Positions 15,498-45,933 of a DNA stretch of 64,000 bases are shown here, one piece after another. The stretch covers positions 151,396-215,395 of the forward strand of contig DPGI01000009.1 in the NCBI GenBank assembly GCA_003522085.1, written 5' to 3'. Made by a program: the position numbers and the translations under genes. The notes under the pieces are model-generated. The model was not told where the DNA came from. It did no database searches and saw only the letters and a list, made by a program, of their open reading frames with translations. Position 1 is the stretch's first letter, and every line of letters begins with the position of its first letter. This stretch comes from Clostridiales bacterium (lineage in GTDB: Bacteria > Bacillota > Clostridia > Christensenellales > UBA1242).

Positions 15498-16604
15498 ATG
15501 GAAAATCATTTAGCACTTTACAGAAAATACAGACCACAAACATTTGATGAAGTGGTAGGTCAAGAACACATTACGAAAACTCTGGCAAATCAAATTGTGT
15601 CAGACAAACTTTCTCACGCCTATCTTTTTACTGGTTCACGCGGAACGGGCAAAACCAGTGTTGCAAAAATCTTTGCAAAGGCAGTTAATTGCACTCACAA
15701 CGAAAACGGATCGCCTTGCGGTCAATGCGAAAGTTGCAAGAGAATCAGCGAAGGTCGCGATGTAAACGTAATTGAAATTGACGCTGCTTCAAACAACCGT
15801 GTTGACGACATAAGAGAATTGCGCGAAAAGGTTAAGTTTGCACCAATAGATGCTAAATACAAAGTTTACATCATCGACGAAGTGCATATGCTTTCAGACA
15901 GTGCATTCAACGCGCTTTTAAAAACATTGGAAGAACCACCAAAATATGTGATTTTCATTTTGGCGACAACTGAAGTTCACAAACTTCCTGCAACGATTCT
16001 TTCAAGATGTTCTAGATTTGATTTTAGATTGCTTTCAATCGAAAACCTTTGCAAGGTTTTAAACAAAGTTTTTGCAAGTGAAGAAATTACCGCCGAACCA
16101 GAAGCCGTTAAACTTATCGCAGCAAGCGGCGAAGGAAGTGTGAGAGATACTCTTTCAATTGCTGACAGTATAAATGCATATGCAGACGGGAACATCACAA
16201 AAGAAGACGTTTTAAAGGTTTTGGGAACAACCGATCACGACCTTTTGATCGAATTCTTTGACAAAATTATAAACAAAGATATTGGCGGCGTGCTTTCGCT
16301 TATAAGCGAAATTGACGGCAAGGGCAAAAACCTAGCAGTGTTTGCTAAGGATTGCGCTAAACATGCAAGAGATTTGCTTGTTTGCAAAACTTGCAATGAG
16401 CCAGCGGCTATACTCAACTTTCCAGAAGAACTTTTGAAAAAATACACCGCACAAGCTCAAGAAGTTAGCGACAAAGATTTGATTTGCTATATGCAAAATT
16501 TTGCAGCAAGCGAAACCGAACTTAGATATGCACTTTCAACTAGATTGCTGCTTGAAAGCATTGCAATAAATTGCATTAACGGTGAAACCGCAAAAAAAAA
16601 CTAA
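15498..16604 (+). CDS. dnaX: DNA polymerase III subunit gamma/tau, zero-frame product (domains I-III)
   Basis: 368 aa; LYRKYRPQTFDEVVGQ, GSRGTGKTS Walker A, Zn module CTHNENGSPCGQCESC, IIDEVHML; ends in GCA AAA AAA AAC TAA. Confidence 0.93.
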   Translation: MENHLALYRKYRPQTFDEVVGQEHITKTLANQIVSDKLSHAYLFTGSRGTGKTSVAKIFAKAVNCTHNENGSPCGQCESCKRISEGRDVNVIEIDAASNNRVDDIRELREKVKFAPIDAKYKVYIIDEVHMLSDSAFNALLKTLEEPPKYVIFILATTEVHKLPATILSRCSRFDFRLLSIENLCKVLNKVFASEEITAEPEAVKLIAASGEGSVRDTLSIADSINAYADGNITKEDVLKVLGTTDHDLLIEFFDKIINKDIGGVLSLISEIDGKGKNLAVFAKDCAKHARDLLVCKTCNEPAAILNFPEELLKKYTAQAQEVSDKDLICYMQNFAASETELRYALSTRLLLESIAINCINGETAKKN

Positions 16605-16933
16605 TTAAACAAGTTGCCTCTAATAACGAGCGTGACATTTGGGGAAAAGTTGTGCTGTTTTTAAAAGAACACCGACATATTGCCATGTTTGTTGCTTGTG
16701 GAGACATTACAGAAGTTGCTGTGCAAGACGGAAAATTTATTATCACAGCACCAGACAAAACAGTTTATGCGCTGCTCAGCCAAGGTAAGCGAGAAATCGA
16801 ACGTGCGCTTTCATGGCAGGGGCTTGAACTTAATGTAGTCATCGAAGAAAAAGAAATCGTGCCGGATAAATTTGAAGACGACAAAAAAGTGCTTTCAAAA
16901 ATCTTTGGCAAAAAACTTACAACCATAGAATAA
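16586..16933 (+). CDS. dnaX: dnaX downstream segment in the -1 frame (tau C-terminal region)
   Basis: The -1 frame is open from 16586 through the A9 run (16592-16600) to 16933. It encodes ..ERDIWGKVVLFLKEHRHIAMFVACGDITEVAVQDGKFIITAP.., which matches the usual IW..vl..l pattern of Bacillota DnaX C-termini. Confidence 0.6.
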   Translation, partial: NRKKKLIKQVASNNERDIWGKVVLFLKEHRHIAMFVACGDITEVAVQDGKFIITAPDKTVYALLSQGKREIERALSWQGLELNVVIEEKEIVPDKFEDDKKVLSKIFGKKLTTIE

Positions 16934-16945
16934 TTGGAGGAATAT

Positions 16946-17266
16946 ATGGGATACGGATTTGGTGGATTTGGCGGAGGAAATATGCAACAACTCATGCGCC
17001 AAGCACAAAAAATGCAGCAAGACATGCAACGTGCGCGTGCCGAACTTGACGAAAGAGAATTTACAAGCAGTGTTGGCGGAGGAATGGTTGAACTGACTAT
17101 GCTTGGAAACAAGACAGTAAAATCACTTTCCATCAAACCTGAAGTTATTGATCCTGATGACAAAGAAATGCTTGAAGACTTGATTGTAAGCGCGTTTAAC
17201 GACGTTATCGCTAAAATCGAAATCGCAGAAAAAGAAACTATGCCTAATATGCCGGGGATGATGTAA
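16946..17266 (+). CDS. ybaB: nucleoid-associated protein YbaB/EbfC
   Basis: MQQLMRQAQKMQQDMQ...GGGMVELTMLGNKTVKSLSIKPEVIDPDD; GGAGG SD before the ATG at 16946; conserved dnaX-ybaB-recR order. Confidence 0.9.
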   Translation: MGYGFGGFGGGNMQQLMRQAQKMQQDMQRARAELDEREFTSSVGGGMVELTMLGNKTVKSLSIKPEVIDPDDKEMLEDLIVSAFNDVIAKIEIAEKETMPNMPGMM

Positions 17267-17267
17267 G

Positions 17268-17861
17268 ATGGCAAGATTTGACGAACCTATTGAAAGACTG
17301 ATTGAATATTTTCGCTCTTTGCCTGGGGTCGGTTATAAAACTGCACAAAGATATGCCTATTCAATAATCGAAGGCTCAAACGAACGTGCTGAAAACTTTG
17401 CAAACGCCATAAAAGACGTTAAAAGTAAAATCGGACTTTGCACTAAGTGCGGGAATTATACGGACAAGCCTGTTTGTGATATTTGCGAAAAGCGCAGCGG
17501 CAAAACTATTTGCGTAGTTAAAGAGCCAAAAGATATTCTTTCAATGGAAAAAATAAAAAACTACGACGGAGTTTATCACGTGTTGTTTGGACTTATAAGT
17601 CCGCTTGAAGGCAAAGGTCCAAATGATATTAAAGTGAAAGAACTTTTAAATCGCATAAACGAACTTGGAACAGAAGAAGTCATTATGGCAACTGATCCAG
17701 ACGTTGAAGGCGACGCGACAGCAATGTATATCGCAAAACTTTTAAAGCCAATGGGCATAAAGGTTACGCGTCTTGCTCAAGGAATCTCTATGGGCAGCGA
17801 TCTTGAATACGCCGATGAAATTACGCTTTCAAAAGCGATGGAAGGAAGAAGAGAAATTTGA
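17268..17861 (+). CDS. recR: recombination protein RecR
   Basis: 197 aa; LPGVGYKTAQRYAY HhH, C4 zinc finger CTKCGNY..CDIC, Toprim region VVKEPKD..ATDPDVEGDATA. Confidence 0.95.
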   Translation: MARFDEPIERLIEYFRSLPGVGYKTAQRYAYSIIEGSNERAENFANAIKDVKSKIGLCTKCGNYTDKPVCDICEKRSGKTICVVKEPKDILSMEKIKNYDGVYHVLFGLISPLEGKGPNDIKVKELLNRINELGTEEVIMATDPDVEGDATAMYIAKLLKPMGIKVTRLAQGISMGSDLEYADEITLSKAMEGRREI

Positions 17862-45904: not shown

Positions 45905-45933
45905 ATTTTATCACGCATCATTTTTTTTTGCAA
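45905..45933 (-). promoter_or_regulatory. promoter of tRNA-Ser
   Basis: minus strand TTGCAA, 17 nt, TGaTAAAAT, about 18 nt before the mature 5' end. Confidence 0.55.

Follow-up and report, generated by a model that had tools for sequence, protein, structure and literature searches.

The dnaX gene in the window analysed here (64,000 nt of contig DPGI01000009.1, part of a genome assembled to 875 kb in 9 contigs with 37.7% G+C) is divided between two reading frames. The clamp-loader core of the protein lies in one frame and the C-terminal domain of tau in the -1 frame; the two are joined only by a run of nine A residues (A9), and the arrangement is conserved under selection. Tau connects the clamp loader with the replicative polymerase, and if it is made only via a slip at the run, then an essential replisome subunit of a species-rich gut genus relies on programmed infidelity of RNA polymerase or the ribosome. 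We are confident that the A9 run serves for programmed recoding by one or other of the two and, judging from sequence comparisons, consider that it probably acts by programmed transcriptional slippage. The genome is that of an uncultured gut member of the Clostridia, Candidatus (Ca.) Caccovivens, which is genus UBA11517 of family UBA1242, order Christensenellales, in GTDB (Gilroy et al. 2021, PMC8035907).

The zero frame of dnaX starts at an ATG, ends with GAA ACC GCA AAA AAA AAC TAA and encodes 368 aa (...NGETAKKN*). A Pfam scan placed DNA_pol3_delta2 at residues 21-177 (E 7e-50), DNAX_ATPase_lid at 186-224 and DNA_pol3_gamma3 at 233-361, and nothing beyond residue 361 of this product. Since the Pfam domains all fall in the zero-frame part, the short product comprises clamp-loader domains I-III only, as had been proposed in a preliminary description of the window that also had the -1 frame open from 16586 through the run to 16933. 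On re-reading the sequence, all coordinates given for the site are correct: the -1 frame opens at 16586, reads NRKKKLIKQVASNNERDIWGKVVLFLKEH... and ends at a TAA at 16931-16933, overlapping the zero frame by only 19 nt, with the run inside the overlap. Replacing A9 by A10 would give a 478-aa fusion made of residues 1-365 and the -1-frame continuation, with the junction ...ETAKKKLIKQVASNNERDIWGKVVLFLKEH.... The chance of a -1 frame remaining open for at least 109 codons at random in-gene positions of this genome is 0.0017, and the two-frame layout is well beyond chance. Gene callers annotate an 82-aa open reading frame (ORF) downstream of dnaX; annotation pipelines have left a truncated dnaX and this orphan ORF in hundreds of public contigs, where the two should be joined.

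Features of the dnaX recoding site, in coordinates of the window
Feature	Position	Strand	Basis
dnaX zero-frame ORF, gamma-like short product, domains I-III	15498..16604	+	ORF and Pfam
TGA closing the -1 frame upstream; 5' limit of the shift window	16583..16585	+	sequence
A9 slippery run; first A is the third base of a GCA codon	16592..16600	+	sequence and congeners
Zero-frame stop TAA, ends the short form; C 16601 lies between run and stop	16602..16604	+	sequence
+1-frame stop TAA, two codons past the run (ACT AAT TAA)	16606..16608	+	sequence
-1-frame continuation KKKLIKQVASNNERDIWGKVVLFLKEH...TTIE*, 113 aa, tau C-terminal domain	16592..16933	+	sequence comparison

The -1 frame had been described as the missing C-terminal region of tau, and profile comparisons bear this out. 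We built a profile from 54 of these domains and aligned it by HHalign with the last 125 residues of 71 ordinary DnaX proteins encoded in a single ORF, among them proteins of Lachnospiraceae and Bacilli. The alignment spans 103 columns at a probability of 96.9% (E 1.7e-10), against 0.2% for the same profile aligned to the DnaX domain III region as a control. Moreover, the domain is in frame with the N-terminal part in two congeners with an A10 run (G190 and G260), and in several other Clostridia. Pfam and PDB sequence searches with the C-domain returned no significant match. A genus-level hidden Markov model of it did not reach Lachnospiraceae or Bacilli, and profile-profile comparison was required. 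Pairwise differences per site in the domain are 0.40, 0.27 and 0.59 at codon positions 1, 2 and 3, the third-position bias expected of coding sequence, and by this measure the -1-frame domain is under purifying selection. An AlphaFold (AF2) model, predicted with confidence, shows a compact alpha-alpha-beta-beta-alpha-alpha-beta-alpha arrangement with a mean predicted local distance difference test score (pLDDT) of 84.6. Foldseek comparison of the model with the PDB gave weak matches, none with E at or below 0.001, the leading ones being those to DnaA domain I (E 4e-3) and to the N-domain of DciA, with domain V of Escherichia coli tau (2aya) at rank 30; these predicted similarities are compatible with a replication-protein interaction module, but no proof of one. 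By analogy with known tau, the C-domain would bind the replicative polymerase.

The arrangement is widely kept in the genus. We found dnaX in 23 of the 24 congeners sampled, and in all 23 the C-terminal part formed a separate match at an offset of 2 mod 3, that is, in the -1 frame; genomes of other families in the order have dnaX as a single ORF of 388-706 aa. We aligned 24 dnaX regions (average column identity 69%), and all 24 share the nine A's, the C and T that follow and the A two bases further on (A9-CTNA), with variable flanks on either side, which across the gene have diverged to roughly 65% identity. The codon phase of the run is likewise identical throughout (NNA AAA AAA AAC), its first A falling at the third position of GCA, GTA, TCA or ACA, all of them codons with four-fold degeneracy. 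A zero-frame stop (TAA or TGA) follows 1 nt past the run in 23 of the 24 and two codons later in the remaining one (G002), the +1 frame meets a stop no more than 7 codons from the run in every one, and the -1 frame runs on for 109-119 codons. Many of these congeners have a -1 frame that opens just 3 nt before the run, which leaves a shift window of 16 nt. Across the alignment, then, the run and the following C-T-N-A stand out as the sole conserved cis element.

To extend this to 154 species representatives of the genus, we took a census with the pattern A9-CTNA-N(25-55)-TGGGG, anchored to Trp-Gly codons; the unanchored motif AAAAAAAAACTNA gave too many control hits and was replaced by it. The anchored pattern matched once in each of 140 species, with a single control hit in total, and the 14 species without a match include at least one (G015) whose assembly lacks dnaX. 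Among the matches listed, lengths were 53, 56, 59, 62 or 68 nt, all 2 mod 3. Any indel between the run and Trp-Gly thus adds or removes whole codons, and the frame is therefore read from the run itself. The run is exactly A9 in 138 of the 140 site-bearing species and A10 in the other two, G190 (Ca. Caccovivens faecavium) and G260. In each of these the gene is one uninterrupted ORF, with the junctions ...DAKKKLKIEP...VWGKIVLYLKEH... and ...DVKKKLKIAAQ...VWGKVVLYLKER... respectively, and both shifted frames are closed within 1-3 codons; tau lies in the zero frame, the polarity known from Thermus. The site sequences of locus L032 and G190, the Ca. Caccovivens faecavium of this genus, are identical.

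Explanations that dispense with recoding fare poorly against these results. The preliminary description had raised a 1-nt homopolymer error as the trivial alternative, and a true A10, which two species of the genus do have, would indeed fuse the frames; a pseudogene confined to one strain would be a related possibility. We looked up the exact 368-aa product, which can arise only from an A9 run, in public assemblies and found it in 127 indexed blocks of the collection; the 89 contigs that carry it come from NCBI, ENA and Logan assemblies made in many studies with different assemblers. All 15 members listed of its 90%-identity cluster (82 members) have 368 aa, whereas the fused 478-aa sequence had no match among about 15 billion proteins. 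Six of six fetched loci have A9 in the same context, and A10 and A11 runs assemble without trouble in other genera. On the strength of these assemblies a sequencing error is excluded. The comparison with relatives that the description had called for shows the run and the two-frame layout in place, first in the dnaX-bearing congeners sampled and then across the wider set of species, and with purifying selection on the -1-frame domain added to this, we regard artefact or decay, taken together, as negligibly probable. Phase variation at the DNA level would have replication slippage produce subpopulations with A9 and A10, and tau made by the A10 cells only. Homopolymers are mutational hot spots, and A9 and A10 do both occur in the genus, the two A10 species lying in separate subclades. 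However, since tau is essential, A9 cells would not be viable, yet every assembly of the species has A9 as its consensus, and the stops conserved in the two other frames would go unexplained; we think this a highly improbable account of the site.

A further alternative is that DnaX is gamma-only and that the C-domain is made as a small stand-alone protein by re-initiation past the dnaX stop. A genus of the same family (g51) does have a C-domain with its own Shine-Dalgarno (SD) sequence and ATG, in a frame that differs among species, and the annotated 82-aa ORF would fit such a product. Against this, the -1 frame of the window has no ATG, GTG or TTG before the near-invariant Trp-Gly-Lys motif (WGK), the first being the GTG at 16652, after the motif. 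Eight of the 24 congeners have no start codon before WGK, candidate start positions are not conserved, and in none of the 24 is a start before WGK preceded by an SD-like motif. Across the 140 species, indels in multiples of three tie the frame to the run, and re-initiation would not account for the invariant A9 or the immediate stop. Independent translation of the C-domain thus appears unlikely from the sequences, and we give very little credence to the view that recoding is absent.

Long homopolymer runs are otherwise rare in this genome. There are 11 A/T runs of 9 or more, against about 290 expected from a rough first-order Markov estimate over the 875 kb, a depletion of about 25-fold. The dnaX run is the sole one deep within a long coding frame; the others are intergenic, at gene ends or right after a start codon. 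We take it from these two observations that A/T runs of this length are normally selected against. An example of a run right after a start codon is at C4:77372, ATG AAAAAAAAA CAA, and a T9 run occurs elsewhere in the window, at about 45921-45929.

In the scheme that we favour, RNA polymerase would slip at the run, where the template strand has T9, and generate a mixed pool of mRNA. Unslipped A9 mRNA would be translated into the 368-aa gamma-like protein (...AKKN*), and mRNA with one extra A (A10; likewise A7 or A13) into the 478-aa tau-like protein (...AKKKLIKQ...), which by homology with tau would contain the domain holding the replicative polymerase to the clamp loader. In A8 and A11 mRNAs a stop would come within 2-3 codons and add to the short forms, and the efficiency of slippage would set the ratio of short to long protein. 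Slippage of the ribosome by -1 on the in-phase heptamers A_AAA_AAA and A_AAA_AAC may contribute. The polarity would be the reverse of that in Thermus and E. coli: the zero frame yields the short product, and only a slip would give the long one; this had been suggested for the site already, and the frame layout supports it.

The competing explanation is programmed -1 ribosomal frameshifting, in which all of the mRNA has A9 and some ribosomes slip on A_AAA_AAA or A_AAA_AAC, helped by the adjacent stop. We favour the polymerase because all nine A's are invariant, including the first at its degenerate position, whereas a ribosomal heptamer needs seven and would leave two A's outside any single heptamer free to vary. 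The polymerase is also favoured because runs of A9-A11 occur in all three codon phases in other genera, because the genome so strongly avoids A/T runs of 9 or more, and because sister genera with an in-frame A9 or A10 close both shifted frames, as Thermus does, when a +1 stop would be irrelevant to a -1 ribosomal shift. Finally, the stimulators of ribosomal frameshifting are not in evidence: an SD-like motif lies upstream of the run in 4 of 24 sequences, no enrichment over a background of 11%, and no conserved RNA structure was found upstream or downstream (RNAalifold -0.68 kcal/mol for a 10-sequence alignment and 0.0 for the 24-species alignment; mean z-score of -0.35 for the upstream 45 nt). 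In E. coli, moreover, A_AAA_AAA and A_AAA_AAC are much less prone to shifting than A_AAA_AAG (PMC5009743).

Several points nevertheless weigh against transcriptional slippage as the exclusive mechanism. The step from DNA to heterogeneous mRNA is one that we infer from sequence. The run contains the two in-phase -1 heptamers in the X_XXY_YYZ phase in 24 of 24 congeners, the phase is fixed in the genus, and in nearly all of them the stop comes at once, as ribosomal frameshifting would have it. In three other genera of the family (g43, g45 and g71) the -1 split persists at a junction of just A6-A7 followed by C or T and a stop (e.g. tcA AAA AAC TAA); since such runs are too short for efficient polymerase slippage, the ribosomal route is apparently sufficient there. 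Long runs could also be depleted because they are unstable in replication, and not because of slippage in transcription. The tRNA-Lys repertoire, as a guide to how slippery AAA and AAG are, does not bear on the choice: aragorn found 29 tRNA genes in the assembly, with Lys, Asp, Phe, Tyr and Val unrepresented. Because these tRNA types are missing from an assembly rated 99% complete, tRNA (and probably also rRNA) loci were left unassembled or unbinned. In addition, E. coli dnaX itself shifts by -1 on A_AAA_AAG, and in published work either route is taken to be able to replace the other in dnaX (PMC3711429, PMC5009743). Weighing these points together, we think it rather unlikely, though well within reach, that ribosomal frameshifting on its own operates at the A9 site.

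Comparison with known systems places the gene in an established class. A two-ORF dnaX of reversed polarity, in which recoding is needed for tau, was described by Antonov, Coakley, Atkins, Baranov and Borodovsky in 2013 (Nucleic Acids Research (NAR) 41:6514, PMC3711429) and restated by Atkins et al. 2016 (PMC5009743). The 2013 set comprises 17 genes from 12 genera, 12 of the genes having poly-A runs, mostly A10; the species include members of Chlorobium, Prosthecochloris, Chloroherpeton, Flavobacterium, Cytophaga, Capnocytophaga and Coraliomargarita, and transcriptional realignment was inferred from sequence (PMC3711429). Ca. Caccovivens dnaX shows every sequence-level feature of this class: a core ORF whose gamma part ends at a zero-frame stop right after the poly-A, a tau C-part in the -1 frame and a conserved A run (about 7-10). 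It is likewise not annotated as one gene, and in both cases polymerase slippage is deduced from the run. The differences are that the described class includes Chlorobi, Bacteroidetes and Coraliomargarita and mostly has A10, whereas here the lineage is family UBA1242 of the Bacillota and the run is A9, and that sampling is much denser here, with 140 species inside a single genus and some 18 genera across the family. Our literature search found no report of reversed dnaX in Clostridia. The reversed layout has thus been known since 2013, and the Bacillota are a new phylum-level lineage for it, extending reversed-polarity dnaX from Bacteroidota, Chlorobi and Verrucomicrobia.

In Thermus thermophilus, programmed transcriptional slippage on an A9 run in dnaX was shown experimentally (Larsen et al. 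2000, via PMC3711429 and PMC5009743). The gene, the position at the boundary of domain III and the C-terminal part and the length of the run are the same here, and in both systems nearby stops give the short form: in the window a run of at least 9 A's is followed by a zero-frame stop 1 nt on and a +1-frame stop two codons past it. The two differ in polarity. Thermus makes tau from the zero frame and gamma by slipping, while in the window gamma is the zero-frame product and the slip would make tau; the polarity of Thermus occurs at the same site in G190, G260 and several sister genera. E. coli dnaX uses a -1 ribosomal shift on A_AAA_AAG with a 5' SD element and a 3' stem-loop. There too a single gene gives two clamp-loader proteins through an A-rich shift at the same domain boundary; by contrast, the site here is A_AAA_AAA_AAC without AAG, has neither an SD-like element nor a stem-loop, and the shifted product would be the long one.

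A looser parallel is the rescue of genes interrupted by poly-A through transcriptional slippage. It is found in the endosymbionts Buchnera and Blochmannia, and a further case is Citrobacter rodentium tssM (PMC4256274). In those cases, and by our reading here, a frame-disrupting A-run is bypassed at the RNA level to give products of two lengths, but the genome analysed here does not in general tolerate such runs, and the dnaX run is no recent lesion, being ancient and conserved across genera. Two loci outside the family also have runs at dnaX. One, in a metagenome-assembled genome (MAG) of Desulfobacteraceae (L106:2650-2700), has an in-frame A10 at aa 386 with shifted-frame stops 0 and 3 codons away; the other, in a Bacteroidia MAG (L109:2580-2640), is split at an A10 and continues for a further 219 codons in the -1 frame, like the cases on record for Bacteroidetes.

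Another way to view the site is as one of several solutions to the gamma/tau junction in family UBA1242. We surveyed 151 genomes from 58 genera, all of about 1 Mb, and then analysed 73 junction regions by sequence, finding six layouts. The -1 split at A9-A11 occurs in about 18 genera, Ca. Caccovivens included. The second layout is the -1 split at A6-A7, seen at loci L135, L137, L157 and L174 (g43, g45 and g71) as tcA AAA AAC TAA, ctA AAA AAC GAA TAA and tcA AAA AAA TTT TAA; g71 is nested within the poly-A clade on the gene tree, and a ribosomal heptamer has likely replaced the longer run at these splits. A third layout is a fused gene with an in-frame A9 or A10 run at the boundary of domain III and the C-domain, in g34, g41, g42, g46, g62, g68, g36-G059 and g21-G141 (loci L125, L128, L133, L134, L138, L150, L154, L178-L180, L183 and L185). 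Here stops lie 0-4 codons on in both shifted frames in all nine tabulated cases, for a background probability of 0.062 per site, and all four g42 species and both g41 species looked at keep the in-frame run. In genus g36 the two polarities occur in one species each: G059 is fused (gtA AAA AAA AAC gag) and G111 split. A fourth layout is a fused gene without a run. In the fifth, the C-domain is a gene of its own right after the dnaX stop, complete with ATG and SD-like sequence (g51; loci L141, L172 and L173, with aaggtgaattaATG, agaggataaattATG and taggtgaaaaATG respectively), so that a stand-alone C-domain seems to be tolerated in this one genus.

The remaining layout is a +1 split beside a CCC codon, found at L116, L143, L151, L153, L155 and L166-L171 (g23, g48, g53, g63, g66 and g69) and at L036:2600-2700. 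All 12 sequences close the zero frame with CCC-stop or CCC-AGN-stop, and their tau C-domain continues in the +1 frame for 107-157 codons, the overlap window being as small as 8 nt. Seven have the form GGTG-N3-CCC-stop, which resembles prfB, one has GGAG-N5-CCC-TAA and four have TTT_CCC_AGN-TAA. Of the 49 proline codons in the rest of the segments, one is CCC, and no conserved start codon for the C-domain was found in the 12 sequences. We regard this class as a candidate for +1 programmed ribosomal frameshifting that would make tau; we found no description of a prfB-like +1 frameshift for dnaX in the literature.

We then used a quick maximum-likelihood tree of domain III and the C-domain (82 rows, 232 columns), the product of a short search with many unsupported forks, to relate these layouts. 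The Ca. Caccovivens sequence falls in a supported clade of about ten genera (SH-aLRT, the Shimodaira-Hasegawa-like approximate likelihood ratio test, 95), all with the -1 poly-A layout, and the A10 congeners G190 and G260 belong to separate subclades, each of them supported. On this 82-sequence tree the six layout labels need at least 23 changes, a rough count. Even within Ca. Caccovivens, with its 138 A9 and two A10 species, polarity flips by the indel of a single A. It is possible, although we would stop short of calling it probable, that UBA1242 is a natural experiment in which the junction has switched many times among six layouts. If so, slippage would be efficient enough to make either polarity viable, and a gamma-like short DnaX would be wanted in these Bacillota, which would thus differ from Bacillus subtilis, for which the picture is one of tau only.

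Downstream of dnaX lie ybaB/ebfC at 16934-17266 (PF02575; probable ATG at 16946 after GGAGG) and recR at 17268-17861, the dnaX-ybaB-recR order usual in Bacillota, and pgk and tpiA lie upstream.

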